Source: Synergistales bacterium (GTDB taxonomy: Bacteria; Synergistota; Synergistia; Synergistales; JAFGMB01). Taken from it: a stretch of 64,000 nucleotides of DNA. The position numbers and the translations under genes were made by a program. Numbering within the stretch: position 1 is the first letter of the stretch; each line of letters opens with the position of its first letter. The stretch is taken from positions 736,001 to 800,000 of the forward strand of contig OY762654.1 of the NCBI GenBank assembly GCA_963666205.1, read 5' to 3'. The notes beneath the pieces are model-generated. The model was not told the DNA's origin. It searched no databases and was given only the letters and a program-made list of their open reading frames with translations. Shown in pieces: positions 1,412-17,194 of this stretch.

Positions 1412-2404
1412 TTGAAATACATAGAAAATCTTTCAAAAGATCCATACTTAAATCTGGCCATGGAGGAATATCTTTTTAATAATCTGAAATCCGGAGATGA
1501 TGGATATTTCCTTCTTTGGCAAAATGAACCTACAATCGTGGTTGGGAGGTTTCAGAATACCCTTGAGGAGATCAATGGAGATTTTGTAAGGTCCAGAAAG
1601 GTAAATGTGGTCAGGCGCATTTCAGGAGGCGGAGCTGTATATCATGATCAAGGTAACCTTAACTATACATTTATAGTACATTCCAAGACAGATAATCCAT
1701 TTGACTTTGCTTTCTATACAAGACCCATTGTTGAAATTCTAAATCGACTTGGCGTCAATGCAGCATTCACAAGCCGTAATGATCTCACCATTGATGGAAA
1801 GAAATTCTCCGGAAATGCCCAGTATATGAAAAAAGGAAGACTTCTGCACCACGGAACGCTTCTTTTTAATTCCGATCTGGATGTCCTGACCCAGGCTCTT
1901 AATGTATCGGAGGATAAGTTCCTTTCGAAGGGAATTAAATCAATTCGAAGCAGGGTAACCAACATACTCCCCCATCTTTCTGACGATATGGATATTTCGT
2001 CTTTCAAAAAAGTGATACTGGAAAATATTACCCATGACAATCAGGATATTGTCGAGACTACCCTGCCTGTAGAGGTTATTAAAAACATCGAAGATCTTGC
2101 TGAAAATAAATACAGGACCTGGGATTGGAATTATGGCAAATCCCCTGAATTTACGGAAAGAAAGATCCAACGCTTTGACAGCGGCAAAATCGAGGCTCTC
2201 ATAAAAGTTGAAAAGGGAATAATCCTTAGCTGTAAATTTTATGGAGATTTTTTCGGGAATGGAGATCTGGGAGATATTGAAACCCTGATTACTGGAAAAC
2301 CCTATAATAAAGACGACATGGCAAAGGCGCTGGAACACGTTCATCTGGGGCATTATTTCAGGGGAGTAGAGAAGCCTGATTTTATTGAATTTATGGCACC
2401 GTAG
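1412..2404 (+). CDS. lplA: Lipoate-protein ligase A
   Basis: PYLNLAMEEY, VRRISGGGAVYHD, RNDL..GKKFSGNAQ, HHGTLL motifs; adjacent to lipoyl-dependent E2/E3; TTG start. Confidence 0.95.
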   Translation: MKYIENLSKDPYLNLAMEEYLFNNLKSGDDGYFLLWQNEPTIVVGRFQNTLEEINGDFVRSRKVNVVRRISGGGAVYHDQGNLNYTFIVHSKTDNPFDFAFYTRPIVEILNRLGVNAAFTSRNDLTIDGKKFSGNAQYMKKGRLLHHGTLLFNSDLDVLTQALNVSEDKFLSKGIKSIRSRVTNILPHLSDDMDISSFKKVILENITHDNQDIVETTLPVEVIKNIEDLAENKYRTWDWNYGKSPEFTERKIQRFDSGKIEALIKVEKGIILSCKFYGDFFGNGDLGDIETLITGKPYNKDDMAKALEHVHLGHYFRGVEKPDFIEFMAP

Positions 2405-2470: not shown

Positions 2471-4234
2471 CTATTTTCGGGGAGGAATATGGATGGCTCC
2501 GCCATTGACATCAAGGGCTGCTTCGCCAAGAGCCTCCCCTACTGTGGGATGAGCATGAATGGTAGATACTATCTCCTCCACGGTAGCTTCCAGTCGAAGA
2601 GCCAGTGCTCCCTCAACAATAAGATCTGTCGCCCTTGGACCGACAATATGAACACCAAGTATTTCATCATATTTCCCGTCTACAACGAACTTGATCATAC
2701 CCTCTGTTTCATTCATGATGAGGCTTTTCCCGTTCGCAACAAGGGGGAACTTCCCTATTTTGACATCATAGCCTTTCTCCCTTGCTTCTTTTTCAGTCAG
2801 ACCGACACCGGCAATTTCAGGAGATGTGTAGATACACCCTGGATTGGTCTTGTAGTCCATTTTTGTTTTATGACCCATGATATTTTCTGCTGCAACTTCT
2901 CCTTCATGAGAAGCCACATGGGCAAGCATAACAGGGCTGGAACAGTCTCCTATGGAATAAATGCCTGGTTTGTTCGTACAGAGATATTCATCTACCACGA
3001 TTCGGCCACGATTCATTCTGATACCGATATTATCAAGGCCAAGTCCATCGGTCACCGGCCTTCTGCCAATTGCAACCAGTGCCTTGTCTGAAGTTATGCT
3101 GATATCTCCATCAGAAGTACTTACTGAAACAAGCACTGATTCACCATTTTTACTGAATCCTGTTACTTTTGATCCGGTATGGAATTTCACACCCTTACGG
3201 GAAAGGGAAGCTTTAATTACCTTGATTATATCTTCATCAATATTGGGTAATATCTCGGGAAGCATCTCTACTATGGTCACTCTTGTTCCCAGACTGGCAA
3301 AGATGGAAGCAAATTCCACACCGATCACTCCACCACCGATTATGGTCATGGAAGATGGTACTTCCTCAAGGGAGAGGGCCTCATTGCTGGAGATAACACC
3401 CTCGTTTTCTATACCAGGGATTGGAGGCATGGATGGTTCGGATCCAGTAGCTATGATGAAATTATCGGCAACAATGGTCTGTTCTCCTGCAACTGAGCTT
3501 ATGCGTATCTCATTTTCAGATATGAAGGATGCTTCTCCTTCAATTATCTTCACATTGTTTTTAGTAAGAAGGGTTTTTACACCTCCAACAAGCTGACCGA
3601 CTATGCTGTCTTTTCTTTTCATTAGAGAGGTCCAGTCTACTCTGACATTATCTGCCAACAGTCCGATCATGGATCCCTCTTTTACTGCATTGTACAACTC
3701 TACTGTATGGAGAAGTACCTTGGTGGGAATGCATCCCACGTTAAGACATGTACCGCCAAGATATTTTCTGTCTACAATGGTAACATCAGCGCCAAGGCGG
3801 GAAGCCCGGATTGCAGCAACATAACCGCCAGGTCCCGCTCCTATAACAACAATCTTCTTCCTGTCAGTGATTTCTTTAAGGGGCTTTTTTTCAACTTCTT
3901 CAGAAAGAGAGGATTCCTCATCAGCCGTTTTCTGCTGAGGCGCCTGGACCTGATCCTGTACCGGTTCCTCAGGTATTTCATCTCCCAGAACCTCTCCAGG
4001 CTCGGAAATGACAGCAAGGGATTCTGCCACTGCTGCTGAACCGCCTTCAGCTACCACTATCCTTGCTAATATTCCGCTTTCCGGAGCTTCTACCTCGTAG
4101 GACAGTTTATCTGTTGCTACTACTAATAGGATCTCGCCTTTTTCAACGGAATCCCCTTCATTCTTTCTCCACTCTGAAATAGTGCCCTCAGTCATTGTGA
4201 GACCTAATTTGGGCATGGTTATAGTTGTTGCCAT
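2471..4234 (-). CDS. lpdA: Dihydrolipoamide dehydrogenase (E3) with N-terminal lipoyl domain
   Basis: GAGPGGY, GGTCLNVGCIP redox disulfide, HAHPTVGE; N-terminal MPKLGLTMTEG...ATDKL lipoyl domain; AGGAGG before ATG 4234. Confidence 0.95.
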   Translation of the reverse strand: MATTITMPKLGLTMTEGTISEWRKNEGDSVEKGEILLVVATDKLSYEVEAPESGILARIVVAEGGSAAVAESLAVISEPGEVLGDEIPEEPVQDQVQAPQQKTADEESSLSEEVEKKPLKEITDRKKIVVIGAGPGGYVAAIRASRLGADVTIVDRKYLGGTCLNVGCIPTKVLLHTVELYNAVKEGSMIGLLADNVRVDWTSLMKRKDSIVGQLVGGVKTLLTKNNVKIIEGEASFISENEIRISSVAGEQTIVADNFIIATGSEPSMPPIPGIENEGVISSNEALSLEEVPSSMTIIGGGVIGVEFASIFASLGTRVTIVEMLPEILPNIDEDIIKVIKASLSRKGVKFHTGSKVTGFSKNGESVLVSVSTSDGDISITSDKALVAIGRRPVTDGLGLDNIGIRMNRGRIVVDEYLCTNKPGIYSIGDCSSPVMLAHVASHEGEVAAENIMGHKTKMDYKTNPGCIYTSPEIAGVGLTEKEAREKGYDVKIGKFPLVANGKSLIMNETEGMIKFVVDGKYDEILGVHIVGPRATDLIVEGALALRLEATVEEIVSTIHAHPTVGEALGEAALDVNGGAIHIPPRK

Positions 4235-4293
4235 TTTATAAATGATCCTCCTTGATAAAATTGGAAGCAAATCGTTTCCGGATTAGAATAAGA

Positions 4294-4342
4294 CCTTCCC
4301 TGGTAAGGAATCTCCGGTATATCCGGCCTTGACCAGGGAAGG
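4294..4342 (-). terminator. Intercistronic stem-loop between E2 and E3 genes
   Basis: CCTTCCCTGGTAAGG...CCTTGACCAGGGAAGG imperfect inverted repeat. Confidence 0.55.
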
Positions 4343-4347
4343 GATAT

Positions 4348-5847
4348 CTAGACCATCAGCAGGTAGGGATTCTCGATAAGTTCCTTGATCCTGGCAAGGA
4401 ACTTTGCTGCATCTGCACCATCAAGAATACGATGATCAGCGGTAAGACCGATCATTGAAATGGGCCGGATCTCGACAGCACCATTAACAGCTACAGGTTT
4501 TTCGACAATAGCATTTACTGCCAGGATACAGGCCTCGGGAGGGTTGATAATGGGCGTAAAATCATGCATTCCGAACATTCCGAGGTTAGAGATAGTGAAG
4601 GTGCCACCCTGCATGTCATCCATGCCCAATTTGTTATTCCTTGCTTTATCAACAAGAGCATCGGTTACAGAAGCTATCTCGTAAATGCTTTTGGACTGCA
4701 CACTTTTAACATTGGGTACAAGGAGACCACCCGGAACGGCTACAGCAAGTCCTATATTCACTTCATCATGCAGAATATACTCCTGGGTCCCTTGATCATA
4801 ACTGGCATTTGCCATGGGATTCTCCATAAGGGCTTTTGCACAGACCTTCATCAGCATATCGTTAAAAGAAACCTTGGCGCCTCTGTCCGAGACTTCTTTT
4901 TTGATCTTGCTCCGGAAGGATATGAACTCGGAAAAATCCACTTCAATGTTAAAGACAACCGAGGGAATAGTAGAGGCACTGTGAGTCATGCGCTCCGCAA
5001 TGATCTTTCGCATTGGAGAAAGAGGAACCCTCTTTTCTCCTGATATCGAAAGAACTGGTGATTTTCCTGGTTGAATTTCACTGCATGATTTTTCAGCAGT
5101 AGTTCCAATACCAGCAGCCTGCATTACATCTTCTTTCATGACCCTTCCATCCTTACCTATGGCCGCAATATCAATACCAAGGTCTTCAGCCATTCTGGAG
5201 GCAACGGGAGATGTCTTTGTGATACGGCCCTTCTGTGCTTCTATGTAAAGCAGAACATCCTGGTTAACTGTTCTCCCATCAGGTCCGGTACCTGGAATAT
5301 CCGTTATATCAAGCCCGCCATCCCTGGCTGTTCTCTTCGCAAGAGGAGATGCCTTGAACTTTTGTGCGGCCTTCATAACATCGTCTTTCACTACCCTGCC
5401 TTCAGGACCGGTACCATAGATAAGGGAGAGATCAAGATTGAATATACGTGCCCATTTCCTGGCAAGCGGCGAAGCCTTAACCGGTCCGGATGAAAGGGGT
5501 TTTTCTGTTACTGCTGTCATTTCTGCAACTGGTACCGGTTCTTCGGCCACTTCACCGGGCTGCTCAGTTCCTGACACTTCTTCGGCATGAGAAACCTCGA
5601 CATTTTCACCAGGCTCACCTATTGCCGCAATGTTCTCCCCAACTGGGGCAGATTCACCTTCTGAGATAAAAATGTCAAGTAGTACGCCATCTTCAGGAGC
5701 TTCAACCTCATAAGTTAATTTATCAGTTGCCACAACCAGGATGATCTCGCCTTTCTTTACCTCATCCCCCTTCCTCTTGGACCAGGATGAGATTGTGCCT
5801 TCGGTCATGGTCAAACCCAGTTTGGGCATAGTTACAAGTGTAGCCAT
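4348..5847 (-). CDS. Dihydrolipoamide acyltransferase (E2), one lipoyl domain and three subunit-binding repeats
   Basis: Lipoyl ATDKL; three [AT]SP..A...D...G..GR...DV repeats; GGTFTISNLG and DHRILDG catalytic motifs. Confidence 0.93.
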   Translation of the reverse strand: MATLVTMPKLGLTMTEGTISSWSKRKGDEVKKGEIILVVATDKLTYEVEAPEDGVLLDIFISEGESAPVGENIAAIGEPGENVEVSHAEEVSGTEQPGEVAEEPVPVAEMTAVTEKPLSSGPVKASPLARKWARIFNLDLSLIYGTGPEGRVVKDDVMKAAQKFKASPLAKRTARDGGLDITDIPGTGPDGRTVNQDVLLYIEAQKGRITKTSPVASRMAEDLGIDIAAIGKDGRVMKEDVMQAAGIGTTAEKSCSEIQPGKSPVLSISGEKRVPLSPMRKIIAERMTHSASTIPSVVFNIEVDFSEFISFRSKIKKEVSDRGAKVSFNDMLMKVCAKALMENPMANASYDQGTQEYILHDEVNIGLAVAVPGGLLVPNVKSVQSKSIYEIASVTDALVDKARNNKLGMDDMQGGTFTISNLGMFGMHDFTPIINPPEACILAVNAIVEKPVAVNGAVEIRPISMIGLTADHRILDGADAAKFLARIKELIENPYLLMV

Positions 5848-6001
5848 GCTTAGTCCTCCTTATAACGTTTCTTCAGTTAATGCATATTACATATTCCTGT
5901 TACTTCCGGCAGAATACATCCATATATACAAAGTCCTGCCACATCTATTTTGGGACTACTTCTCTGAACACACAATTCATGAAGGCTCCGGGATATTGAC
6001 A

Positions 6002-7054
6002 CTAACCTTCGACCCATGGATCAAGTATAACTTTGCATGCCTTACCCTCTTTTAACAACTCAAATCCCTTCTCAAACTGCTCAAGGGGGAGGACATGGGT
6101 CACGATCGGTTTAAGGTTAAGAAGGTTTCCGGCCATAAGATTTTCCATTACAGTCCAGGTTTCAAACATCTTTCTGCCATGAATACCGATTATCTTGGCT
6201 TCCTTGAAAATAACATCGGAAACAAGATCGATCTCAAAGGTTTTCGACGGAAGACCGATCAGGGCGACTCTTCCTCCCTTTCGGAGGAATTTAAAAGCAT
6301 CAGCGATAGCCTTGACGTTACCGGAAGCATCTATGAAAGCATCCACCCCTACTCCCCCTGTTATTTCCATAACAGAGGACACCACATCGCAATTCATGGG
6401 ATTGAGCAGATTACTGGCACCCAGTTCCTTTGCAATAGCAAGTCTGTCCTCGGAAACATCGGTAACGATGATCCTGCAGGCTCCCATGGCTTTAAGAGCG
6501 GTAACCACACCGAGTCCGATAGGGCCGCAGCCTATGACGGCAACATTGGAACCGGAACAGACCACTTCCTGGGCCGCTCGTACACTTGTGCCCAGAGGTT
6601 CCATCATTGCCCCGAACTCCCAGGGGATCTCATCCGGGATCTTTCTGGCGCATATTTCGGTGAGTAAAGCATATTGTGCAAAGCAACCATTACAATGAAC
6701 ACCAAAAAGATTCATGTTTGCACAGATATGCTGTTGTCCGTTCATGCACTGGTAGCACTTGCCACACGGGCCATGGGTTTCCCCAGAGACCCTGTCTCCG
6801 ATCGAAAGATTTTTTACGGCAGATCCTGTTTTGGCAACCTCGCCACTGAATTCATGCCCCATTATCTGGGGAACCGATCTTACTGCTTTCCTGGCCCATT
6901 CATTCCACGCGTAAATATGCACATCGGTCCCACAAATAGCTGTAGCCTTTACCTTGACCAGGACTTCCCCGGGACCCGGTTCCGGGATATCCACACTTTG
7001 AAAAACTGCCCCCGGTTCTGCAGCCGCCTTGACGACCGCTTTCATCTTACTCAT
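6002..7054 (-). CDS. tdh: L-threonine 3-dehydrogenase-like Zn-dependent dehydrogenase
   Basis: AICGTDVHIY.WNEW, GHEFSG, CGKCYQC..C structural Zn, GIHGRKMFETW. Confidence 0.8.
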   Translation of the reverse strand: MSKMKAVVKAAAEPGAVFQSVDIPEPGPGEVLVKVKATAICGTDVHIYAWNEWARKAVRSVPQIMGHEFSGEVAKTGSAVKNLSIGDRVSGETHGPCGKCYQCMNGQQHICANMNLFGVHCNGCFAQYALLTEICARKIPDEIPWEFGAMMEPLGTSVRAAQEVVCSGSNVAVIGCGPIGLGVVTALKAMGACRIIVTDVSEDRLAIAKELGASNLLNPMNCDVVSSVMEITGGVGVDAFIDASGNVKAIADAFKFLRKGGRVALIGLPSKTFEIDLVSDVIFKEAKIIGIHGRKMFETWTVMENLMAGNLLNLKPIVTHVLPLEQFEKGFELLKEGKACKVILDPWVEG

Positions 7055-7072
7055 GAAACAATACCCCTTTCA

Positions 7073-7831
7073 TCAGTTATCGCGCATTATTCCACCGTCA
7101 ACATCAGTGATCTCACCGGTTACATGGCTGGCCAGATCTGATGCCAGGAAAACCACCATGTTCGCAATATCCTGTGGTTGGCCGAACTTGCCCAGGGGAA
7201 CACCACTCAGGATACGTTTCCTGTTCTCATCATCAAGACCGGAAAGCATAGAGGTTTCTATAGGACCAGGGCAAATTGCATTAACATTGATACCGTATTT
7301 GCCGGCTTCTCTGGCTATTCCCTTGGTAAGAGCAATTACACCAGCTTTTGATGTTCCATAAAGAGTATTTCCGAAGAATCCTCCGCCTTTTTTGCCTGCT
7401 ATTGAAGCGATATTTACTATCTTTCCATATCTCTGCTCTATCATTATCGGCAAAACGGCATAACAGGTACTGTATACACCCTTTAGATTTACTGCCATGA
7501 TCAGATCCCATTCTTTCTCTGATGTTTCCAGAAAAGGATTGGGAGAAACTATTCCGGCATTGTTGACAAGGATATCTATACGACCTAGTTTACTCTGGAT
7601 ATCTTCCACAATATTTTTGACCTGTCCCATGTCGGTAACATCCGCTTTATATACGAAGGCCTCTCCGCCTTTTTCAAGGATAGCATCCTTTGTGGAATTG
7701 GCTCCCTCTTCGTTCATATCCAGTATAACCACCCTGGCTCCACATTCCGCAAGGGAAATCGCAATAGCCTGTCCTATCCCTCTTGCTGCCCCGGTAATTA
7801 CTGCAACTTTATCGGAGAAATTAAATTCCAT
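7073..7831 (-). CDS. SDR family oxidoreductase (FabG-like)
   Basis: TGAARGIG, NNAG, YGTSK catalytic motif; GGAGG 7 nt before ATG 7831. Confidence 0.9.
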   Translation of the reverse strand: MEFNFSDKVAVITGAARGIGQAIAISLAECGARVVILDMNEEGANSTKDAILEKGGEAFVYKADVTDMGQVKNIVEDIQSKLGRIDILVNNAGIVSPNPFLETSEKEWDLIMAVNLKGVYSTCYAVLPIMIEQRYGKIVNIASIAGKKGGGFFGNTLYGTSKAGVIALTKGIAREAGKYGINVNAICPGPIETSMLSGLDDENRKRILSGVPLGKFGQPQDIANMVVFLASDLASHVTGEITDVDGGIMRDN

Positions 7832-7875
7832 AGTCAAACCTCCAGGTAAAATGTCTTATTAAGAAGCTTTGAAGG

Positions 7876-8640
7876 TCAATCGCGCATTATCCCGCCATCA
7901 ACATCAAAGATCTCACCAGTAACATGACTGGCCATATCCGACGAAAGGAACATGGCCACATCGCCTATCTCCCTGGGCTCACCAAATCTGGCAAGGGGAG
8001 TACCTGCAATGATGGCTTTCTTGTGCTCTTCAGGGATAGGATCGATCATGGTTGTCTTTATAACACCGGGACATATCGCATTGGCATTGATATTAGATGG
8101 ACCACCCTCCCGGGCCAGCCCCTTTGTGAGCCCTATTACTCCTGCTTTAGAGGCAGCATAGATAGCAGTTCCCCTGAATCCGCCACCGAGCTTTCCCGCA
8201 ATTGAGGCAATATTGACTATCTTTCCGCCTCCATTATTGATCATATGCGGGAATACGGCGTTACATGTATTAAAAGTACCTTTCAGATTTATTCCAACAA
8301 TAAAATCCCAGTCCTTCTCATTACATTCAGCAAAGGGCTTCCCGCTTGAAACCCCTGCATCATTTACCAGAACATCAATGCGCCCGAATTTACCAATGAT
8401 CTTTTCAATGCACAAGTTAACATCATGATATAAAGAAACATCAAGGGGGAGGAAGGAAACCTTCCGCCCCCTTGATGTAAGCTCATCGGTGGTCTGCAGG
8501 GCTGATGATTCGTCCAGATCAAGGATGACAACAGTTCCATTGGACTCGGCAAAGGCTTCGACAATACCTCTACCTATCCCTCGACTGCCTCCGGTAACAA
8601 CTATGACCTTTCCTGAAAAATCCATACCCAGTGCAACCAT
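7876..8640 (-). CDS. SDR family oxidoreductase, paralog of the neighbour
   Basis: TGGSRGIG, YAASK; shares IASIAGK.GGGF.G and ASHVTGEI.DVDGGIMRD with 7073..7831. Confidence 0.9.
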   Translation of the reverse strand: MVALGMDFSGKVIVVTGGSRGIGRGIVEAFAESNGTVVILDLDESSALQTTDELTSRGRKVSFLPLDVSLYHDVNLCIEKIIGKFGRIDVLVNDAGVSSGKPFAECNEKDWDFIVGINLKGTFNTCNAVFPHMINNGGGKIVNIASIAGKLGGGFRGTAIYAASKAGVIGLTKGLAREGGPSNINANAICPGVIKTTMIDPIPEEHKKAIIAGTPLARFGEPREIGDVAMFLSSDMASHVTGEIFDVDGGIMRD

Positions 8641-8641
8641 G

Positions 8642-9133
8642 TTATTCCGCCTTTCCGTAAATATTAAAAAGGGGAAATTCCGTTTCGTCATCGAAAGCCC
8701 TTGTGATGGTCACGTCATCAAAGGCCTGGATCATTATTTCCATTGTGCTCATAACAGGATTTCCGCCCTCTACAAAATGGGCCCCGTGGAATCCCTGGTC
8801 GGGATCGGAGAGAACACCGTGGAGGTGAACAACGGTCTCCCCATTATCCTCATAGACACCGATCATGCCGCTTCCGCAAATGAATTCCAGGGGTCCTTCA
8901 ACATCAACAGGATCACCATATTTCGCATTCATTTTCGTCCTGGGATCAGGCAGGGCCCACACAAAACGGGCTCTGGAAAGACTTCCATGCATTGCAGTAA
9001 TGCAACCTGCCGTAACTCCATGTTCCTTACATACCGCAACCAGTCCCGTTAAAAGGTCAGTTCCCGGGAGAAGTCTTACTGCGATCTGCCTGGCCTTTAC
9101 TTCTCTTGAGGAAAAACGTATATTTCCCATCAC
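8642..9133 (-). CDS. PPC/DUF296 domain protein
   Basis: VRLLPGTDL, GSL, GPLE, HLHG...GAH...TME pattern. Confidence 0.85.
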   Translation of the reverse strand: MMGNIRFSSREVKARQIAVRLLPGTDLLTGLVAVCKEHGVTAGCITAMHGSLSRARFVWALPDPRTKMNAKYGDPVDVEGPLEFICGSGMIGVYEDNGETVVHLHGVLSDPDQGFHGAHFVEGGNPVMSTMEIMIQAFDDVTITRAFDDETEFPLFNIYGKAE

Positions 9134-9145
9134 AAAAACCTGCTA

Positions 9146-10126
9146 TCAGAACATTCTTCTGATAGCATCAGCTATCTTCTGGGGAGTAACCCTGTATGCC
9201 GTCTCAAGGGGTTTGGCAAATGGTACCGGAGTGAAAGGAGCACCGACCCTGACTATAGGAGCATCCAGATAGTCTATTCCCTCTTCTGCCACTATTGCAG
9301 AAAGTTCTGCTCCCACTCCGCCCTGTTTGACAGCCTCATGGGCTATGGCAAATCTGCTTGTCTTGGCTACAGATTCAAGAATGGTATCCTTATCGATGGG
9401 AGAAATGGTCCTCAGATCGATACATTCCACGCTGATTCCTTCTTTCTCCAGCATCTGTGCTGCCTCAAGGGCATGATTAAAACACAGTGAATAAGAAACC
9501 AGTGTGACATCTGAACCTTCCCTGACAACCTTGGCTTTGCCGATGGGTGTAAAATATTCTTCTTCAGGAACAGGTCCTTTACGGCTGAAAAGACTCTTAT
9601 GTTCAAAATAAATAACAGGATTATCATCCCTGATAGCAGATTTCAGAAGACCTTTAGCATCTGCCGGATTGGAAGGGATAACGACTTTGAGACCGGGAAC
9701 ATGCATAAACCAGGATTCGAGACTCTGGGAATGCTGTGCAGCAGCCTGATTGATCAATCCATCAGGTGCACGGAGGACCATGGGTACGGTCTTCTGCCCA
9801 CCGAACATGTAATGGATCTTTGCCATCTGGTTGAAGATCTCATCCATGCAGACTCCTACGAAATCGGCAAAATGCATATCAGCAATGGGCCTCATCCCTG
9901 CAAGGGCTGCTCCAACACAAGCCCCGACAATAGCCGTTTCAGTAATAGGAGTATCTTTGACCCTGTCGGATCCAAATTTCGCAGGAAGACCTTTAAACTG
10001 CCCGAAAATACCTCCCTGTCTTGCTATATCTTCTCCCATGACAAAAACTGTTTCATCACGAGTCATTTCCTCATCCATTGCTTCGAGAGTGGCCTGGGAA
10101 AAAGTAATTTCTCTCATTTTATTCAC
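9146..10126 (-). CDS. acoB: TPP-dependent acetoin/pyruvate dehydrogenase E1 beta subunit
   Basis: MGEDI..GG, DTPITE, AAQHSQSLE, IDLRTISP. Confidence 0.85.
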   Translation of the reverse strand: MNKMREITFSQATLEAMDEEMTRDETVFVMGEDIARQGGIFGQFKGLPAKFGSDRVKDTPITETAIVGACVGAALAGMRPIADMHFADFVGVCMDEIFNQMAKIHYMFGGQKTVPMVLRAPDGLINQAAAQHSQSLESWFMHVPGLKVVIPSNPADAKGLLKSAIRDDNPVIYFEHKSLFSRKGPVPEEEYFTPIGKAKVVREGSDVTLVSYSLCFNHALEAAQMLEKEGISVECIDLRTISPIDKDTILESVAKTSRFAIAHEAVKQGGVGAELSAIVAEEGIDYLDAPIVRVGAPFTPVPFAKPLETAYRVTPQKIADAIRRMF

Positions 10127-10131
10127 CGTCC

Positions 10132-11136
10132 CTATACATAAAGATCCTGGTAAAGTTCAGCGGGGTCTGGTTCCGGAGCCTGCATGGCAAAATCCACCGC
10201 TTCTTCGATTACTTTCCTGGCGTCGCTCTTTATCTCATCGAGTTCAGCCCGGGACATCATTTTTTCTGCCAGGACCCTTTCTTCAAAACGGGTTATGGGA
10301 TCATTCTCTGTAAATACCTTGTTTACTTCTTCCTTGGTCCTGTACATTTCAGGATCACCGACAAAATGGCCTCCTATACGGTAGGTCTTGCATTCAAGAA
10401 GGGCTGGGCCTTCTCCCTTTCTGATATTCTCGATCAGGCCCTTTGCCGCCTCGTAAACAGCAAAGACATCATTTCCGTCAACTATTACACCAGGCATACC
10501 ATAACCCTGGGCACGGTCTGCAATATCTTCGACAGAGGTCGTAGTTCTGTAGGGAGTGGTTGAAGCCCACTGATTGTTCTCACATACGAAAAGGACTGGA
10601 AGTTTCCAGGCAGCAGCCATGTTGGCCGCCTCATGGAAGGTACCACGGTTGGAAGCGCCATCTCCGAAAAAGACCACTGCTATCTCTTCTTTTCCCATCA
10701 TCTTGCTCGCAAGGGCAGAACCGGTTGCCAGGGTGTATCCACCCCCCACTATTCCATTTGCACCAAGCATTCCTACACTGAAATCGGCTATATGCATGGA
10801 ACCGCCTTTTCCCTTGCAGAATCCAGCTTTTTTGCCAAAGATCTCTGCCATCATCCTTTTAGGATCGGCACCCTTGGCTATTGTGTGGCCATGTCCCCTG
10901 TGGGTGGTCTGAATATAGTCCTTTTTTGTAAGGTTGGACATGATACCTGTTCCCGTTGCCTCTTCTCCGATGTAGACATGGACAAACCCGGGAATCACAC
11001 CAGCAAGGAATTTCTCCTGGATATTCTCTTCAAAACACCTGATCTTGCACATGATTTCGTAGAAATGTTCCAGAAGCTCCTTATTGTATTTCTTGATAGA
11101 AGAAGGAGTCTTCTTTGTTACAGGTTTAGCACACAT
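10132..11136 (-). CDS. acoA: TPP-dependent acetoin/pyruvate dehydrogenase E1 alpha subunit
   Basis: PGFVHVYIGEEA, THRGHGH, GKGGSMH, GDGA...ENN TPP motif, GHFVGD. Confidence 0.85.
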   Translation of the reverse strand: MCAKPVTKKTPSSIKKYNKELLEHFYEIMCKIRCFEENIQEKFLAGVIPGFVHVYIGEEATGTGIMSNLTKKDYIQTTHRGHGHTIAKGADPKRMMAEIFGKKAGFCKGKGGSMHIADFSVGMLGANGIVGGGYTLATGSALASKMMGKEEIAVVFFGDGASNRGTFHEAANMAAAWKLPVLFVCENNQWASTTPYRTTTSVEDIADRAQGYGMPGVIVDGNDVFAVYEAAKGLIENIRKGEGPALLECKTYRIGGHFVGDPEMYRTKEEVNKVFTENDPITRFEERVLAEKMMSRAELDEIKSDARKVIEEAVDFAMQAPEPDPAELYQDLYV

Positions 11137-11177
11137 ACAAATACCTCCTTAACATTTTGCACTGAAAGAATCTGTGA

Positions 11178-12500
11178 TCAGCCTGCCAATGTGGGCAACC
11201 ACATTACTATTTTGGGCCAGATCAGGCACATGGCAAGGCCGGTGGCCTGAAGCATCACGAAGGGAGTCACGCCCCAATATATCTCTTTAGTTGTAACAGT
11301 CGAGGGAGCAACGCCTTTAACAAAGAAAATAGCGTAGGCAAAGGGCGGGGTAAGGAAAGACATCTGAAGATTGATACTGATCAAAAGCACGAAGTAAAGG
11401 GGATCAAGCCCAAGATGAACAGCTATGGGCAGGAAAATGGGCACCACGATATATACGATCCCAATCCAGTCAAGGAACATACCCATAATGAAAATGGAGA
11501 ACATCATGATAAAGATAACTCCCCACTTTCCAAGCCCCAGTCCAAGAAGCATGGCTTCGATAAGGGCACCGCCCCTCATGAACAGGAAGACTGACGTGAA
11601 CATCTGGGCTCCAACGATTACAAAGAAAACCATGGAGGTTACCTTGATGGTCTCCATGACTGCTCCTCTTACGGTAGCCCAGTTAAGGTTTCTGTACAGC
11701 AGTGCAATGATAATGGCACCGAGAGCACCCACACCCGAAGCCTCCGTTGGGGATGCTATCCCCAGAAGGATCGATCCCAGAACAGCGAACAGCAGACCCA
11801 GGATGGGGAGCATGTAGATTACTGTGTGAAGAAGGATAGTCCCCTTTACGGCATCCCTTTCAGCGGACGTGATGGCAGGTGCCACCGAGGGCTGGAGCCA
11901 GCACCTGATGATAATATATACAATGTAAAGGGAAGCAAGAAGAAGACCGGGAAGAAGGGCACCGGCAAAAAGCTTGGCCACCGAAAGGTTCGTCATAGGG
12001 CCAAGAACAACCAGCATTACACTGGGAGGAATAAGGATCCCAAGCGTACCTCCGGCACACACTACACCCGTGGAAAGGCCATGATCGTAGTTACGCTGAA
12101 GCATGGCGGGGAGGGCCATAAGGGTCATGGTGGTAACAGATGCAGCTATAACGCCAGTACAGGCAGCAAAGAGGGTACTGATGATGATGGTTGTCAATGC
12201 AAGACCGCCCCTGACAGGTCCAAGAAGGAGATACATGGTATTGAACAGTTTCTCCGCCGCTCCGCTCTTCTCAAGAATACATCCCATAAAGACGAACAAT
12301 GGTACCGCGATAAGGACCTCGTTCTGCATTACACCGAAGGTGTTCTGCATAAAGAGGTTCAGCATTGCAGGACCTCTGTACCAGACACCGAAGGTTACTC
12401 CAAGGAACATCATGGCAAAACCAAGGCGAACTCCAGTCATCACCATGAAGATCAAGATAAGGAGCATCGATACCGCTAAAACTTCTGGGCTCATGGTCAT
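11178..12500 (-). CDS. dctM: TRAP transporter large permease
   Basis: AVPLFVFMG, GTLGILIPPS, SPTEA, LTPPF; polytopic. Confidence 0.93.
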   Translation of the reverse strand: MTMSPEVLAVSMLLILIFMVMTGVRLGFAMMFLGVTFGVWYRGPAMLNLFMQNTFGVMQNEVLIAVPLFVFMGCILEKSGAAEKLFNTMYLLLGPVRGGLALTTIIISTLFAACTGVIAASVTTMTLMALPAMLQRNYDHGLSTGVVCAGGTLGILIPPSVMLVVLGPMTNLSVAKLFAGALLPGLLLASLYIVYIIIRCWLQPSVAPAITSAERDAVKGTILLHTVIYMLPILGLLFAVLGSILLGIASPTEASGVGALGAIIIALLYRNLNWATVRGAVMETIKVTSMVFFVIVGAQMFTSVFLFMRGGALIEAMLLGLGLGKWGVIFIMMFSIFIMGMFLDWIGIVYIVVPIFLPIAVHLGLDPLYFVLLISINLQMSFLTPPFAYAIFFVKGVAPSTVTTKEIYWGVTPFVMLQATGLAMCLIWPKIVMWLPTLAG

Positions 12501-12997
12501 TCTTCTCCTTTAACTGCTACACGCAAATTTCGAAATAATTCCACCACACCCTGCAACATGAGCAAAGCAAACCCGATGGGTATCATGGTTTTAACCGGTC
12601 CTGCAGGGAAATGCCACAGTGTCGTCGAGAGATACTCATGCGAACTCCATGCCCTTGCGGCAAACTGGATACCTTTCCAGGTCAGGATCGCCATGATGGG
12701 CAGAAAGATAACGGCAAAAAAGAAAGAGTCGTACCATGCCTGAAATCTTTTTGGAAGGGCCGAAAAGATGATGTCAATTCTCACATGTCTTTTATGTAAC
12801 ATGGTATATCCTCCACCGAGAAGGAACATTGCGCTGAAAAGCATCCAGGCCGTATCGTAAACCCAGTCGGTGGGATTATTGAATACGTACCTGATCACGA
12901 CCTCGTAGACAACCACCGCGTTGAGGGGTAATACTATAGCGGCAGCGACCAGACCTAATTTTTCATTAACCCACTCGATAAGATCGAAAAGTCCCAT
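12497..12997 (-). CDS. dctQ: TRAP transporter small permease
   Basis: YEVVIRYVFNNPT.W, HVRIDI; four TM segments. Confidence 0.92.
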   Translation of the reverse strand: MGLFDLIEWVNEKLGLVAAAIVLPLNAVVVYEVVIRYVFNNPTDWVYDTAWMLFSAMFLLGGGYTMLHKRHVRIDIIFSALPKRFQAWYDSFFFAVIFLPIMAILTWKGIQFAARAWSSHEYLSTTLWHFPAGPVKTMIPIGFALLMLQGVVELFRNLRVAVKGEE

Positions 12998-13029
12998 TTT
13001 GTTACCTCCACTCCATATGGGCTATCTTC

Positions 13030-13059
13030 ATAGGAGAGCGGCATAAGCCGCTCTCCTAT
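13030..13059 (-). terminator. Stem-loop downstream of dctP (mRNA stabiliser or attenuator)
   Basis: ATAGGAGAGCGGC-ATAA-GCCGCTCTCCTAT, 13-bp stem. Confidence 0.7.
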
Positions 13060-13105
13060 AATTGTTTCATTGTTGATTGGAAACAGGATACTTAACTGAT
13101 CATTC

Positions 13106-14158
13106 CTACTTGTCGAACTTGACCAGGTTATTAAGGTCCTCGTAAGATGCAAGGAATTTCTTCTGGGATTCCCAGACCTTCTTGAACATGGGGTCGTCCT
13201 GTGATTTTTCATCAAGAATCTCATAGGTCAGTCTCAAAGCGATCGCCTGATCAGCAGGAGAAAGTTTGTTGATCTCCACTCCGGCGGCCTTTATCTCGTC
13301 AAAGGCCTTTATGCTTTCAAACCAGAACTTGGCATAGCCCTCAAAGGTTGCCGAAACGGCCGCATTCTTTACGATCTCCTTGAGGTCATCAGGAAGGGCA
13401 TTGTACTTATCCGTGTTGATAATAAGCTGGAAGATATTGGAACCCATGTGAATGGGGGGACCCATGAGATATTTGCAGACCTCGTGAAGCCCAAGACCTA
13501 CGTCCATGCTCGGGAAGGCAAACTCTGCACCATCGATAACACCTCTGCGGAGGGAAGGAACCACTTCGCCGCCGGGAAGAAGGACAACGGATGCGCCGAG
13601 TTTCTGCCAGAGTTCCATGCTCAGACCGGCAGACCTGACCTTAAGTCCCTTGATGTCCCCAAGGGTTTTGACCGGCTTGGTGGTCCATATTCCTGATTCC
13701 GGAGGGGTAAGGCCAAGGGGGAAGACCTTGATTACATCGCCATACATTTCCTGCTCGAGGGTTGCGCCTTCATCACCGTACATCCAGACCAGCAGGTCAT
13801 TGGTTTCAGTTACACCAGCGGGAAGGGTGTAGAAAAGGTCTCCCGCAGGATACTGCCCCTTCTGCCAGGCAGGAGTATTCTGACCGCAGTCAAGGACGCC
13901 GTCACGGACAGATTCGAAAACAGCAGGTCCGGGAACGATCTCGCCCGAGCCATGCATTTCTATTTTAAGTCTTCCGCCACTCATTGCCTCAACTTTATCT
14001 GCCCACATGGGGAAATACATACCTACTGGAAGAGTAACGGGGAAGCAGCTCTGTCCTACCCACACTATGGGTTTATCTGCTGCAATAGCGGTACCGGAAC
14101 CGAACATAACGAAAGCCATCAGAAGTGCAATTACAAAAAGAGCAAAACCTTTTTTCAT
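13106..14158 (-). CDS. dctP: TRAP solute-binding protein
   Basis: Signal peptide, SGGRLKIE, DIKGLKVR, LPGGEV...GVIDGAE. Confidence 0.92.
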   Translation of the reverse strand: MKKGFALFVIALLMAFVMFGSGTAIAADKPIVWVGQSCFPVTLPVGMYFPMWADKVEAMSGGRLKIEMHGSGEIVPGPAVFESVRDGVLDCGQNTPAWQKGQYPAGDLFYTLPAGVTETNDLLVWMYGDEGATLEQEMYGDVIKVFPLGLTPPESGIWTTKPVKTLGDIKGLKVRSAGLSMELWQKLGASVVLLPGGEVVPSLRRGVIDGAEFAFPSMDVGLGLHEVCKYLMGPPIHMGSNIFQLIINTDKYNALPDDLKEIVKNAAVSATFEGYAKFWFESIKAFDEIKAAGVEINKLSPADQAIALRLTYEILDEKSQDDPMFKKVWESQKKFLASYEDLNNLVKFDK

Positions 14159-14275
14159 TATCTCATACCTCCTCTTGATAAAAAGCTGTCAGGTTTCTTA
14201 TCCTCACGCCATATCCTTGCCTAACTTATAGCCTTTGCTTCACCTCCTTAAAAGAAACAGAGACAGATACAATTT

Positions 14276-14905
14276 TCAAAGTAAACGTGTCTTGGCTCCT
14301 TTCAGATGGACATCCATCTCCCTGATAGCTCGTTCAAGGTCGCCCTCTTTCATCGCTGTCAGGATGAGTGAATGTTCTTTAACAAAAAGCTTCATATTAT
14401 CGAGAGATTCAAGCATTTTATAATTAACAGAATAAAGTCTATCCCTGAGGTTTGCCATGTATTCAACGATCATTGGATTACCATAACGCCTGAAGAGGAA
14501 TTCATGAAACTCCCTGTCAGAGCGAAGAAAACCGGGAGTATCCGTTTCCAGGATACATGAAAGCTGCTGATCGATCACAGCTGAAAGATACTGTATATCC
14601 TCTTTAGTCAGGTTGCCGGAGAGTTCACGGACAACAAACTCTTCAAGGGCTATCCTCATATCATAAATATCACGAACTTCCTGAACTGAAGTTTCAGTTA
14701 CCACTATTCCCCGATTAGGCAATACCTTTATAAAACCCTCCGACTGAAGCTGCTGGAGTGCTTCTCGAATAGGGGTCCGGCTCATCTGAAGCCTTTTGGA
14801 AAGAGAATTTTCGGAGATGCTGTAATTTCCGGCAAAATCCTGATCTGTGATTAGTCTTTTGATTTTCTGATAGGCGATTTCTTTCTTGCTTTCTTTTGGT
14901 TTCAA
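14276..14905 (-). CDS. GntR/FCD family transcriptional regulator
   Basis: wHTH SENSLSKRLQMSRTPIREAL; FCD DREFH...EH..I; TTG start with AGGGGG SD. Confidence 0.9.
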   Translation of the reverse strand: MKPKESKKEIAYQKIKRLITDQDFAGNYSISENSLSKRLQMSRTPIREALQQLQSEGFIKVLPNRGIVVTETSVQEVRDIYDMRIALEEFVVRELSGNLTKEDIQYLSAVIDQQLSCILETDTPGFLRSDREFHEFLFRRYGNPMIVEYMANLRDRLYSVNYKMLESLDNMKLFVKEHSLILTAMKEGDLERAIREMDVHLKGAKTRLL

Positions 14906-14936
14906 AATTATCCCCCTGGGAAAAAGCGATTGCAGC

Positions 14937-14957
14937 TTGTATGCAAGTTGGATACAA
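14937..14957. promoter_or_regulatory. Putative tandem GntR operator
   Basis: TTGTATGCAA-G-TTGGATACAA, two one-mismatch copies of palindrome TTGTATACAA just upstream of the gntR start. Confidence 0.55.
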
Positions 14958-15200
14958 CCAAAAAACAACAATAGAATATTATTTGAACACCTTTCTGTCA
15001 AGTGGCCCCTCAAGTAGTCGCTAAAGTTGAAAAATTGCTTTCAATAAAGGAGAAGTTAGAAAATATTGTAGTTAATGAATTCACACATTTGGAATAAACA
15101 TATCTTTAATGGAGATATTGACATTATCCGACCTATGAATAAAACTTACCTTTATTAATGGGAAAAGAGACTCTTATCGTCCCGGAGGGAGGAAATAGAT

Positions 15201-15503
15201 CTGAAACATAAAGTATTACTGATCCATCCAGCTGATAATGTAGCTACTGCCCTGACAGATATTACTGCAGGGGATAAGGCTATTTGTTCCATAGGGGAAA
15301 AAGACATTCCTGTACTGGCAGTTGAAGATATTCCCTTCGGCCACAAGATAAGCCTTTCAGATATTTCAACAGGAATGGAAGTTATAAAATATGGGGAGAT
15401 CATAGGAAAGGCATCAGTGGAGATCCGTAAGGGACAGCATGTACATGTTCATAATCTTGAAAGTTTGCGGGGACGTGGCGACCTGGAGGTAGAGACTGAA
15501 TGA
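15201..15503 (+). CDS. UxaA/SuyA-type SAF-domain small subunit, probable CTG start
   Basis: Absent from the ORF track. Translates KHKVLLIHPADNVATAL...IPFGHKISL...VIKYGEIIG...GQHVHVHNLES.RGRGD; GGAGG 8 nt before CTG; in-frame TAA at 15156; ATGA overlap with next gene. Confidence 0.88.
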   Translation: MKHKVLLIHPADNVATALTDITAGDKAICSIGEKDIPVLAVEDIPFGHKISLSDISTGMEVIKYGEIIGKASVEIRKGQHVHVHNLESLRGRGDLEVETE

Positions 15504-16657
15504 GACTTTATGGATATATCAGAGAAAACAATACTGCAGGCATAAGGAATCACCTTCTCATAATACCCTCGTCTGTCTGCGCCTCCACCATTTCTTCAAG
15601 GATAGCAGATCAGGTTTCAGGAGCAATATCCCTTCCCAATCAACATGGATGTGCCCAGATAAGACCAGACCTGGATCTTACATTCAGAACACTTGCCGGC
15701 TTTGGGAAAAACCCGAATGTCGGAGCTGTAATTGTTATCGGTCTGGGATGTGAAAGTCTGAAAGCAGAGGAACTTGCCAGGGAAATAAGTAAATCCGGCA
15801 AACCTGTAGAATTTCTGGAGATCCAGAGTTGCGGAGGCACCCTCTCCGCCCAGGAAAAGGGACTGAGAATCGCGACACTTCTCAGTCAAAGTCTATCTCT
15901 GTTAAAACGGGAACAGATAAGCTTCGGAGATATCGTCCTTGGTCTGGAGTGCGGGGGATCTGATACAACTTCAGGCCTTGCTGCCAATCCAGCACAGGGT
16001 CATGTATCAGATAAACTTATAGATCATGGCGGCACATCTATCCTTTCAGAAACCACGGAATTGATTGGTGCTGAACATCTCCTCGCAAAACGGGCCTTAA
16101 ATGATATCATCTCAAAAAGATTGATAGAAATAGTGAACAATTGTGAAAAAAAGGCAAAGAGTATGGGCGTGGACTTGAGGGGTAGCCAGCCGACACCAGG
16201 GAACATCGCTGGAGGATTGACCACAATAGAAGAAAAATCCCTGGGCTGCATATACAAGGGAGGGACACAACCCCTTTGCGGAGTCCTGGGTTATTCCGAA
16301 GCTCCATCTGCTAAAGGTCTCTTTATGATGGATACCCCGGGACAGGACATAGAATCAATAACAGGCATGGTAGCGGGAGGGGCACAGATTGTACTGTTCA
16401 CAACTGGAAGGGGTACCCCTACAGGATGCCCTGTAGCACCTGTCATAAAGATCACCGGAAACCCGGGAACTTACAGGATAATGGAGGAAAATATTGATAT
16501 AAACGCCGGAACCGTAATTGAAGGATCTGAGACGATCCAGGAAGCAGGAGAAAGGATCTGGCTAGAAATGATAGAAGTAATTAACGGTAAGCTAACTAAA
16601 TCCGAAAGTCTTCTTCACCGGGAATTCGGGATACACAAACTTATTTCCACATTTTAG
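15500..16657 (+). CDS. UxaA/GarD/SuyB family dehydratase or lyase large subunit
   Basis: GIRNH, HGCAQ, GLGCE, CGGSD..SG..ANP, GNIAGGLTTIEEKSLG, FTTGRG. Confidence 0.9.
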   Translation: MRLYGYIRENNTAGIRNHLLIIPSSVCASTISSRIADQVSGAISLPNQHGCAQIRPDLDLTFRTLAGFGKNPNVGAVIVIGLGCESLKAEELAREISKSGKPVEFLEIQSCGGTLSAQEKGLRIATLLSQSLSLLKREQISFGDIVLGLECGGSDTTSGLAANPAQGHVSDKLIDHGGTSILSETTELIGAEHLLAKRALNDIISKRLIEIVNNCEKKAKSMGVDLRGSQPTPGNIAGGLTTIEEKSLGCIYKGGTQPLCGVLGYSEAPSAKGLFMMDTPGQDIESITGMVAGGAQIVLFTTGRGTPTGCPVAPVIKITGNPGTYRIMEENIDINAGTVIEGSETIQEAGERIWLEMIEVINGKLTKSESLLHREFGIHKLISTF

Positions 16658-16696
16658 AAAAATATTCTGAACAGGGAGGTTTTTCGTGCAGCATAA

Positions 16697-17194
16697 TTAT
16701 GAACAGGATTTACGAACTTCTTTCATGTTAAAAAGGATAAAATCGGTTTTTTCATCATAAACTCTTTCCAGTACAATGTCCGCAAAAGACTGGATAACTA
16801 TTTCCATTGTGGCCAGAACAGGTGTTGATCCATTATCCACAATGTGACCAGCAATGGGTTCCATTTCATCAGTACCTACCGTACCATGAAGATGTACACT
16901 TATCTCTCCATCCTTAAGGCCTATCATTCCCTGGGCGCCAACAAGCTCAAGAGGCCCTTCTATCGTTATTGGTTCAAAATATCTGGCTCCTGTTTCAGAA
17001 GTTGGATCGGGGGTAACACAGACAAGGGTAACAGACCAGAGACTTCCCAACATGGTTACAATACTCCCTGCGGTAACACCCTTTGATTTGCAGATCTCTC
17101 TTATACCTTCAAAAATATCCTTACCGGGAAGCAATCGTGCCACAACTGTTTTTGAAATATTAGTTTCTACAGCATAAAAAGACTGGGATTCCAA
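16697..17194 (-). CDS. PPC/DUF296 domain protein (second paralog)
   Basis: ARLLPGKD, GSL, GPLE, HLHG...AGH...TME; TTG start after GGAGGGG. Confidence 0.85.
   Translation of the reverse strand: MESQSFYAVETNISKTVVARLLPGKDIFEGIREICKSKGVTAGSIVTMLGSLWSVTLVCVTPDPTSETGARYFEPITIEGPLELVGAQGMIGLKDGEISVHLHGTVGTDEMEPIAGHIVDNGSTPVLATMEIVIQSFADIVLERVYDEKTDFILFNMKEVRKSCS

Follow-up and report, generated by a model that had tools for sequence, protein, structure and literature searches.

Among the closest described relatives of the system reported here are acetolactate decarboxylase (ALDC) and the acetoin dehydrogenase complex AcoABCL of anaerobes such as Pelobacter carbinolicus and Clostridium magnum, the latter of which has an AcoL with a lipoyl domain of its own; sigma-54 activators are a feature of aco operons. 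The DUF296/PPC domain (PF03479) is found widely among prokaryotes and defines the plant AHL proteins. Here we analysed a stretch of 64,000 nucleotides, the window, from the complete 2.95-Mb genome of a Synergistales bacterium (C1:736001-800000), in which genes for an acetoin-dehydrogenase-like E1-E2-E3 complex lie together with a tripartite ATP-independent periplasmic (TRAP) transporter, two short-chain dehydrogenases (SDRs), a threonine-dehydrogenase (Tdh)-like member of the medium-chain dehydrogenase (MDR) family and a small DUF296 protein, PCC. From this we infer a single operon that would take up and break down a small, acetolactate-like alpha-hydroxy or alpha-oxo monocarboxylate, and we propose, from the modelled fold and its predicted metal site, that PCC is a putative metal-dependent, ALDC-like decarboxylase or enediol isomerase.

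Compared with ALDC (AlsD/BudA, PF03306; PDB entries 4bt2, 4bt3, 5xne and 6j92), PCC has the same beta-rich fold and, in a weak alignment, the same HxH...H triad, and its proposed place in the pathway is likewise upstream of acetoin-type cleavage. ALDCs have about 235-275 residues in two domains, whereas PCC has 163 residues and no N-terminal domain, and the sequence similarity between them is not significant. As in AcoABCL, the window encodes heterotetramer-type E1 alpha and beta subunits, a lipoyl-domain E2 and a lipoyl-bearing E3; dehydrogenase genes are again part of the operon, and sigma-54 activators stand near E1 in some relatives. Unlike aco operons, that of the window has a built-in TRAP carboxylate importer and GntR in place of AcoR, carries inserted genes for PCC and the Tdh-like MDR, and has no acoX. 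The solved stand-alone PPC/DUF296 proteins (2hx0, 2nmu, 2p6y, 2h6l, 2dt4, 3htn and 3hwu) share family and fold with PCC (Z 17.6-19.2), but have no assigned reaction and come from other gene contexts.

Layout and possible transcription of the operon

An initial annotation, made from the letters of the window, had read the gene set gntR-dctPQM-E1a-E1b-DUF296-SDR-SDR-tdh-E2-E3 on one strand with lplA adjoining, and Pfam and NCBIfam profile scans of the window confirmed every one of these genes. They are, in the direction of transcription of the main set:

14276 to 15013, minus strand: GntR/FCD-family transcriptional regulator (PF07729, 4.8e-24; PF00392, 9.7e-13)
13106 to 14158, minus strand: TRAP solute-binding protein DctP of the TakP/lactate/2-keto-acid type (PF03480)
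12497 to 12997, minus strand: TRAP small membrane subunit DctQ (PF04290, 6.1e-26)
11178 to 12500, minus strand: TRAP large membrane subunit DctM (PF06808, 5.9e-84)
10132 to 11136, minus strand: thiamine-diphosphate (ThDP)-dependent E1 alpha of the acetoin dehydrogenase/pyruvate dehydrogenase (PDH) type (PF00676, 9.8e-96)
9146 to 10126, minus strand: E1 beta (PF02779 and PF02780, Transket_pyr and Transketolase_C)
8642 to 9133, minus strand: PCC/DUF296 protein (PF03479)
7876 to 8691, minus strand: SDR dehydrogenase 1 (adh_short and adh_short_C2; no NCBIfam equivalog passed)
7073 to 7837, minus strand: SDR dehydrogenase 2 (adh_short and adh_short_C2)
6002 to 7054, minus strand: Tdh-like Zn-dependent MDR dehydrogenase of a PCC-linked clade (NF003808 and TIGR00692 scores given below)
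4348 to 5847, minus strand: E2 dihydrolipoyl acyltransferase (PF00364, PF02817 in three stretches, PF00198)
2471 to 4270, minus strand: E3 dihydrolipoyl dehydrogenase (TIGR01350, 578.7 against a cut-off of 408.8; PF00364 at residues 16-88)
1412 to 2404, plus strand: lipoate-protein ligase LplA, convergent with E3 (PF21948 and PF10437)

The spacing of the 12 minus-strand genes is operon-like: dctM and dctQ overlap by 4 bp, and the gaps between neighbours run from -4 to 154 bp, given ATG starts for PCC at 9130 and for SDR1 at 8641, which are the probable ones as read from the DNA. The true start of gntR probably lies downstream of the TTG at 15013. SDR2 is about 52% identical to the homologues of SDR1. 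A consensus scan for promoters and terminators did no better than on shuffled sequence: it gave 17 promoter-like sites where 23.7 were expected, and for terminator-like sites the corresponding figures were 17 and 14.6. Metatranscriptome contigs from four libraries of two marine-sediment studies cover 25-30 of the 30 operon bins at 95% identity or more, and single RNA-library contigs span SDR1-PCC-E1b (8512-9379) and E1b through DctP (9762-13354). These contigs are compatible with transcription in situ, with DNA carry-over possible, and they establish neither a single transcript nor an expression level. Among named organisms, a metagenome-assembled genome (MAG) of Acetomicrobium hydrogeniformans (Synergistota) has the most closely related locus, with a PCC protein that is 97% identical.

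Predicted fold and histidine triad of PCC

PCC passes PF03479 with 74.6 bits against a cut-off of 25 (residues 15-139); this is its only Pfam match at E <= 0.001, and PF03306 was not matched. The HxH...H motif that the initial annotation had seen in the protein is kept throughout: H103, H105 and H119 are invariant in all 14 close and paralogous sequences as well as in all 21 more diverse ones. Among the latter R20, Y72, E83, T130, R145 and D148 are also invariant, and E132 occurs in at least 90%. An AlphaFold (AF2) model built on the 21-sequence alignment reached a mean predicted local distance difference test score (pLDDT) of 91. When this model was compared with the PDB using Foldseek, seven PPC-family entries came first (E 5e-10 to 9e-9), among them 2h6l (AF0104), which is titled 'metal-containing protein'; they were followed by an unbroken block of nine ALDC entries (E 8e-3 to 3e-2, probability 0.99-1.00), and PTD012 came only after that block. 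VIA, a search independent of Foldseek, returned 2p6y and 2hx0 (Z 19.2 each), 3htn (18.0), 3hwu (17.9) and 2dt4 (17.6), and aligned the ALDC 4bt2 with a Z of 9.2 and a root-mean-square deviation of 3.7 over 115 residues, model residues 15-138 lying on chain residues 101-223; two more ALDC entries had Z values of 7.2 and 7.1, and all others 5.4 or less. The comparison with ALDC that had been suggested as a check of the initial annotation hence yielded a predicted PPC fold with ALDCs as the next-best structural relatives, and the fold relationship between PCC and ALDC is, as judged from the model, real.

To what extent the two proteins share a metal site is a matter of weaker evidence. A profile comparison (hhalign) of PCC with six ALDC genes from other Synergistota genomes returned one alignment, which was weak (E 0.095, probability 0.6%) and which placed PCC 'HLHG..SD...GxH' on ALDC 'HLHF.S.D...GGH', so that H103, H105 and H119 of PCC fell on the invariant H202, H204 and H215 of ALDC. 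It is plausible from this alignment, which is not independently significant, that the PCC triad corresponds to the zinc triad of ALDC. Since the structural alignment is limited to residues 101-223 of 4bt2, PCC appears to lack the N-terminal domain of ALDC, and because it covers the C-terminal half only and has no PF03306 match, PCC is not a member of the ALDC family. PCC agrees at its His, Arg and Glu positions with 2p6y and 2hx0, two PPC proteins that occur in very different settings, and the putative active site is therefore a trait of the whole PPC family.

Proposed pathway

The scheme that we favour, tentatively and at somewhat less than an even chance, is one in which PCC decarboxylates a beta-keto acid and E1-E2-E3 cleaves the acyloin. 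The TRAP system would import an acetolactate-like acid, and the Tdh-like MDR and the two SDRs would, where needed, oxidise its beta-hydroxyl to give an alpha-substituted beta-keto acid. PCC would bind this acid on a three-histidine metal site homologous to that of ALDC and remove CO2 via an enediolate to leave an acyloin. The E1-E2-E3 complex, the only one of its kind in the genome and presumably lipoylated by the neighbouring LplA, would then split the acyloin into acyl-CoA and an aldehyde, as acetoin dehydrogenase does; its E1 would accordingly be specific for an acyloin rather than for a 2-oxo acid. The interpretation of the initial annotation, in which a substrate is oxidised, decarboxylated and cleaved in turn, is partly supported. 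Acyloin cleavage is favoured because PCC is ALDC-like, because an aldehyde:ferredoxin oxidoreductase gene directly follows E3 in one metagenome locus (L100), and because a PDH would be redundant beside many ferredoxin-dependent enzymes. It is favoured also by the lipoyl domain of E3, as in C. magnum AcoL, by the sigma-54 activators of some related loci, as in aco operons, and by the probable acetolactate specificity of a related (System I) transporter described below. Oxidation before decarboxylation fits, since dehydrogenases of the beta-hydroxy-acid type, namely SDR, Tdh-like and 3-hydroxyisobutyrate-dehydrogenase (HIBADH)-like ones, accompany PCC; a HIBADH-like gene adjoins PCC-Tdh in each of L053, L054, L090, L094 and L100.

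On a wider scale, and still more tentatively, we suggest that PF03479 may be a family of small metal-dependent enzymes that act via an enediolate on alpha-substituted beta-keto acids, and that the clade described here may be a minimal, non-orthologous counterpart of ALDC that feeds lipoate-dependent acyloin cleavage.

Conservation and gene orders in Synergistota

Close relatives of PCC are few: they form 14 clusters at 90% identity, and a search of 1.84 billion representatives gave eight at E <= 1e-30. We surveyed 268 Synergistota genomes for genes like the operon's PCC (PCC1-like, E <= 1e-10) and for E1 alpha (E <= 1e-40), and found the former in 72 places in 57 genomes and the latter in 131 places in 98 genomes. 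E1 alpha lies within 5 kb of a PCC1-like gene in 47 of the 72 places and within 10 kb in 51, and 55 of the 57 PCC1-bearing genomes also have an E1 alpha. Gene orders were then taken from maps of 20 longer genome stretches, 26 metagenome loci and 16 further genome stretches (L numbers). The order seen in the window recurs in six genome-contig loci, one of which (L004) is a variant without E1 alpha and beta between dctM and PCC. A first arrangement, System I, reads GntR, E1a, E1b, (PCC), DctP2-Q-M, E2, E3, LplA, with PCC present in L131 and L132. In System II (L042-L044), GntR is followed by a TakP-like DctPQM, SDR, PCC, SDR and the Tdh-like gene, and then by a second, more distant E1a-E1b-E2. 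PCC-Tdh modules (L052-L055) consist of PCC, the Tdh-like gene and a TRAP importer, joined by the HIBADH-like gene in L053 and L054, while E1-E2-E3 is encoded elsewhere in the genome. Metagenome loci L097, L099, L101, L114 and L115 have the order TRAP, PCC, E1a, E1b, E2, E3, and the low-GC locus L100 has a TAXI-TRAP, the Tdh-like gene, a ferredoxin-like gene, an unknown, the HIBADH-like gene, GntR, E2, PCC, E1a, E1b, SDR, E3 and the aldehyde:ferredoxin oxidoreductase. A GntR homologue heads the cluster in L001-L006, L042, L044 and L117-L125, and LplA adjoins E3 in L006, L042, L084, L117, L118, L120 and L122.

The operon of the window looks like a merger of Systems I and II, because its E1 alpha is 69-73% identical to the E1 alpha genes of System I (L131 and L132 included) and its TRAP genes, PCC, SDRs and Tdh-like gene correspond to those of System II. 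When 64 non-identical PCC sequences of the mapped loci were placed in a tree, those adjacent to a dehydrogenase mostly fell into one group, and those directly before E1a formed another, well-supported one. By context, 24 of the 64 stand beside a dehydrogenase (eight of these also beside E1), 13 beside E1 only and six in the context of a second paralogue described below (PCC2), and for 21 no neighbour was visible or none of these was present. The gene set as a whole, whose conservation had been named as a check of the initial annotation, thus recurs across Synergistota families and in metagenomes in shuffled orders, but many homologous TRAP-E1-E2-E3 operons are without PCC, Tdh and SDRs.

Some single observations concern these loci. 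An open frame of 674 amino acids in G057 that suggested a DctM-PCC fusion was ruled out by a TGA stop and a separate ATG in the DNA. A single MAG has the operon's SDR1 cut to a short, internally deleted frame (L037:3559-3867), either a pseudogene or an assembly fault. A gene for a ferredoxin-like protein of about 250 amino acids, followed by one for an unknown of about 207 amino acids without a Pfam match, lies near PCC in two unrelated metagenome contigs (L100:4701-6060 and L087:11723-13107), with identities of 44% and 40% between the copies. True ALDCs occur in 50 of the 268 genomes, with hydrophobic, signal-peptide-like N-termini in L060-L067, and among the genera listed ALDC and PCC1-like genes do not co-occur (genus g20, for example, has ALDC in 36 of 48 genomes and PCC in 0 of 48).

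Evidence against the pathway and alternative readings

Several findings weigh against the decarboxylase scheme. The weightiest, above all others, is that many operons make do with TRAP and E1-E2-E3 alone: PCC lies within 5 kb at only 47 of the 131 places with E1 alpha, which leaves 84 without it, and it is missing from 13 of the 16 further mapped genome loci. Eleven of those 13 (L117-L125, L127 and L128), which show all or part of a TRAP-E1-E2-E3 operon, likewise lack both Tdh and SDR. DUF296, whose absence from homologous operons the initial annotation had named as grounds for giving up its reading, is therefore conserved in part of these operons and dispensable in many. The PCC-less operons may mean that beta-keto acids decarboxylate spontaneously, that E1 cleaves such acids directly and PCC is an isomerase, or that the complex is a plain 2-oxo-acid dehydrogenase. 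ALDC as a substitute for PCC in the same operon was considered and rejected, as the true Synergistota ALDC genes in 10 of 10 loci examined were not beside E1, Tdh or PCC, so that nothing there points to displacement of the one by the other. The profile alignment of PCC with ALDC is by itself not significant and the structural one covers only part of ALDC, as described above. E1 beta passes a PDH subfamily model, the best models of E1 alpha and E2 are PDH models, and the names of E1 homologues in source records are a mixture of PDH and acetoin. DctP resembles 2-keto-acid and lactate binders, the ligands of which could feed a plain 2-oxo-acid dehydrogenase directly. For the binding protein 4P8B, which that of System I resembles (see below), (S)-2-acetolactate is only the presumed ligand, and the 4p8b-type protein is absent from all four remaining genomes of the family to which the window belongs. 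A candidate for kbl exists elsewhere in the source genome, and no aldehyde-handling gene stands in the operon of the window.

The best-surviving alternative, though an unlikely one, is that the locus encodes a conventional NAD-dependent dehydrogenase of 2-oxo acids (pyruvate or 2-oxobutyrate) fed by TRAP, in which the SDRs and the MDR would oxidise 2-hydroxy acids and PCC would be a helper that can be dispensed with, such as a keto-enol tautomerase or epimerase. What the 16 further loci share is a core of TRAP and E1-E2-E3, headed by GntR in 10 of them and with LplA beside E3 in five, and 11 have none of PCC, Tdh and SDR, as such a dehydrogenase would have it. E1 beta scores 367.6 against NF006667 (PDH subfamily), above the cut-off of 321, and among solved structures E1 alpha comes closest to human PDH E1 alpha, with 235 bits. 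The likeness of DctP to keto-acid, pyruvate and lactate binders points the same way. At the equivalog level, however, the match to PDH failed for both E1 alpha (374 against TIGR03182, cut-off 393.85) and E2 (380.5 against TIGR01349, cut-off 445). 2-Oxo-acid oxidation is moreover already covered in the source genome, because it has 11 matches to POR_N, the N-domain of 2-oxo-acid:ferredoxin oxidoreductases, including an open frame of 1188 amino acids that has the size of a pyruvate:ferredoxin oxidoreductase. A plain dehydrogenase also gives no role to an ALDC-like protein that is kept beside E1 in 47 of 72 places, and leaves both the beta-hydroxy-acid-type dehydrogenases and the oxidoreductase after E3 in L100 unexplained.

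As to the complex itself, E1 alpha and beta, the lipoyl-domain E2 and E3 are encoded together in the window, and this E1 alpha is the sole full-length one in the source genome, which has five aldehyde:ferredoxin oxidoreductases. E2 has one lipoyl domain, three tandem E3-binding domains and a catalytic domain; one E3-binding (peripheral subunit-binding) domain is usual in E2. Among the 28 PDB matches of E1 alpha there was no solved acetoin E1, and among the six NCBIfam families listed for it no model named for the acetoin enzyme. In L090, L094 and L129, genes for sigma-54 activators lie ahead of E1 or accompany it.

The transporters bear on the identity of the substrate. The best solved relatives of the window's DctP are 7ug8 ('ketoacid-binding protein'), the lactate binder TTHA0766 (2zzv), 4pet, TakP/SmoM (2hzk) and 5cm6, and the Arg of the GLKxR motif is kept, GLKVR aligning to the same motif in all five. 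To judge from these alignments, the ligand of DctP is very likely a small monocarboxylate of the 2-oxo or 2-hydroxy kind. The initial annotation had considered a threonine-like substrate, and the TakP/lactate type of the binding protein argues against threonine itself. The binding protein of System I belongs to another subfamily. It matches PDB 4p8b, the TRAP periplasmic solute binding protein H16_A1328 of Ralstonia eutropha H16, with E 1.4e-93 (L131) and 1.1e-80 (L117), and its model (pLDDT 87.9) has 4p8b as its top Foldseek match (E 5.8e-40, 49% identity). In the phylum this type of protein (E <= 1e-70) occurs in 100 places in 82 of the 268 genomes, with E1 alpha within 6 kb in 51 of the 100; where it is at least 53% identical to the query, E1 alpha is within 6 kb in 42 of 61 places, several of the misses lying at contig ends. 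Passages in two reviews (PMC5812351, PMC11713862) credit 2-acetolactate as a TRAP ligand to Vetting et al. 2015. A literature search found no paper mentioning '4P8B'.

There is a second alternative, which we consider less probable than the plain dehydrogenase. Here E1 would itself cleave an alpha-hydroxy-beta-keto acid, in a reversal of acetolactate synthase, to acyl-CoA and a 2-oxo acid or glyoxylate, and PCC would be an enediolate epimerase or isomerase that supplies the right isomer. ALDC also rearranges (R)- to (S)-acetolactate, and PCC has its fold and, plausibly, its triad. Operons with the 4p8b-like binding protein occur without PCC in many genomes, the two or three dehydrogenases beside PCC possibly differ in stereospecificity, and the chemistry can be derived from established ThDP mechanisms. 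On the other hand, we know of no E1 of this type that cleaves acetolactate, spontaneous decarboxylation of beta-keto acids explains the PCC-less operons equally well, and no computed result separates direct cleavage from the decarboxylase scheme.

A route from threonine would read the dehydrogenase differently: Tdh would form 2-amino-3-oxobutanoate and PCC would turn it into aminoacetone for the SDRs or E1, or else Tdh would serve a distant Kbl. The MDR indeed passes NF003808 (390.8 against 380), though it fails TIGR00692 (387.3 against 458.35), and its best PDB match is the archaeal Tdh 3gfb with 325 bits, compared with 178 for sorbitol dehydrogenase and 145 for butanediol dehydrogenase. It is the only strong Tdh candidate in the source genome, which also has a Kbl candidate. 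The absence of kbl given in the initial annotation holds for the window, where tblastn found none, but not for the genome, as a candidate (NF005394, 507 bits against 460) lies at about C1:2,614,109-2,615,302, some 1.8 Mb away and beside a Liv-type ABC transporter. The aminopropanol arm of cobalamin derives from threonine, and in L056 a homologue of the MDR heads a cobT-cobU-x-cobS operon. The transporter, however, is a keto/hydroxy-acid carboxylate TRAP and not an amino-acid importer, and cleavage of aminoacetone by E1 would, by inference, yield formaldehyde. Among MDR homologues in the phylum that are at least 42% identical (24 places), PCC lies within 10 kb in 18, as opposed to one of the 25 places at 36-40% identity, and all three loci examined from the latter group hold canonical tdh-kbl pairs. 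For these reasons the operon's MDR forms a separate, PCC-linked clade, Tdh-like in sequence but without a kbl beside it, the substrate of which may or may not be threonine; the threonine route as a whole we regard as improbable.

Two further observations concern the Tdh-like genes. In-frame TGA codons in Tdh-like matches were considered as selenocysteine and ruled out, the TGA being the natural stop codon. In L056:4878-8851, from a distant Synergistota genome, the Tdh-like gene overlaps the operon of cobalamin nucleotide-loop genes that it heads, and SDR-PCC-dctMQP adjoins on the opposite strand.

That PCC is instead a DNA-binding or regulatory protein controlling the operon is highly improbable: solved homologues are deposited as 'putative DNA-binding protein' and the E. 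coli homologue LmiA has been described as a regulator (PMC7667037), but a GntR regulator is already in the operon, PCC has no recognisable DNA-binding domain beyond PF03479, its invariant three-histidine site with Arg and Glu is kept as in an enzyme, and its fold relatives are enzymes.

Further PCC paralogues and neighbouring genes

Next to the operon, at 15168-20935 of the window, lies a divergent set of genes with a second PCC paralogue, PCC2 (16697-17239, minus strand). The set includes a split UxaA/SuyB-like dehydratase, the large part of which is at 15500-16657 and the SAF-domain piece of which is open from about 15168 with no ATG, GTG or TTG before 15375, as well as a PLP (pyridoxal phosphate) enzyme of the CuyA/D-cysteine-desulfhydrase family (18639-19742) and an alanine-racemase-like gene (19823-20935). 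It resembles sets for the breakdown of cysteate/sulfolactate or D-amino acids and is kept next to the operon in L002, L005, L006, L078-L081 and L095. Beside PCC2, at 17370-17855, is a gene for a helical protein of 161 amino acids without a Pfam match, homologues of which (39-41% identity) are direct or close neighbours of E1 alpha in three further genomes (L120:10625-11080, L121:9367-9822 and L132:8231-8668). The source genome has two more PCC paralogues, at C1:1392943-1393284 (L059:5902-6300) and C1:463601-463933 (L058:5578-6006); one comes after genes for a fused TRAP permease and a DapA-like aldolase, and the other lies between a hypothetical gene, the best match of which is the uncharacterised model PRK10621, and a YbaK-like gene. 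PCC genes thus seem to have a tendency to accompany importers.

Relation to described pathways and significance

Full-text literature searches, including one for DUF296 with decarboxylase, found no enzymatic role for DUF296/PF03479, and literature searches found nothing that combines threonine dehydrogenase, acetoin dehydrogenase and a TRAP transporter, and nothing on Synergistetes with acetoin dehydrogenase; a wider search judged by title and abstract found no description of such an operon. The known kind to which the proposed pathway would belong is that of an ALDC with an acetoin-dehydrogenase-type complex, to which it would add a candidate non-orthologous, minimal decarboxylase and a built-in carboxylate importer. 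Further new points are the division into Systems I and II, the association with a binding protein like 4P8B, the separate Tdh clade that goes with PCC, the counts over the whole phylum and the dispensability of PCC in many homologous operons.

Amino-acid-fermenting Synergistota otherwise depend on ferredoxin-dependent 2-oxo-acid enzymes, and the operons described here point to carboxylate-fed, NAD-dependent, acetoin-type complexes in these inhabitants of digesters, oil reservoirs and sediments. If the ligand of 4P8B is indeed (S)-2-acetolactate, then 2-acetolactate, an orphan among TRAP ligands, would become tied to a catabolic pathway. If the proposed scheme is true, it would, with its acetolactate-type TRAP importers, constitute an undescribed route by which fermenters that are strict anaerobes scavenge the overflow metabolites of their neighbours. 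The conserved metabolic context of PCC gives concrete candidate substrates for this protein, and a decarboxylase or isomerase activity would be the first catalytic function for a domain that is annotated as DNA-binding from bacteria to the AHL proteins of plants.

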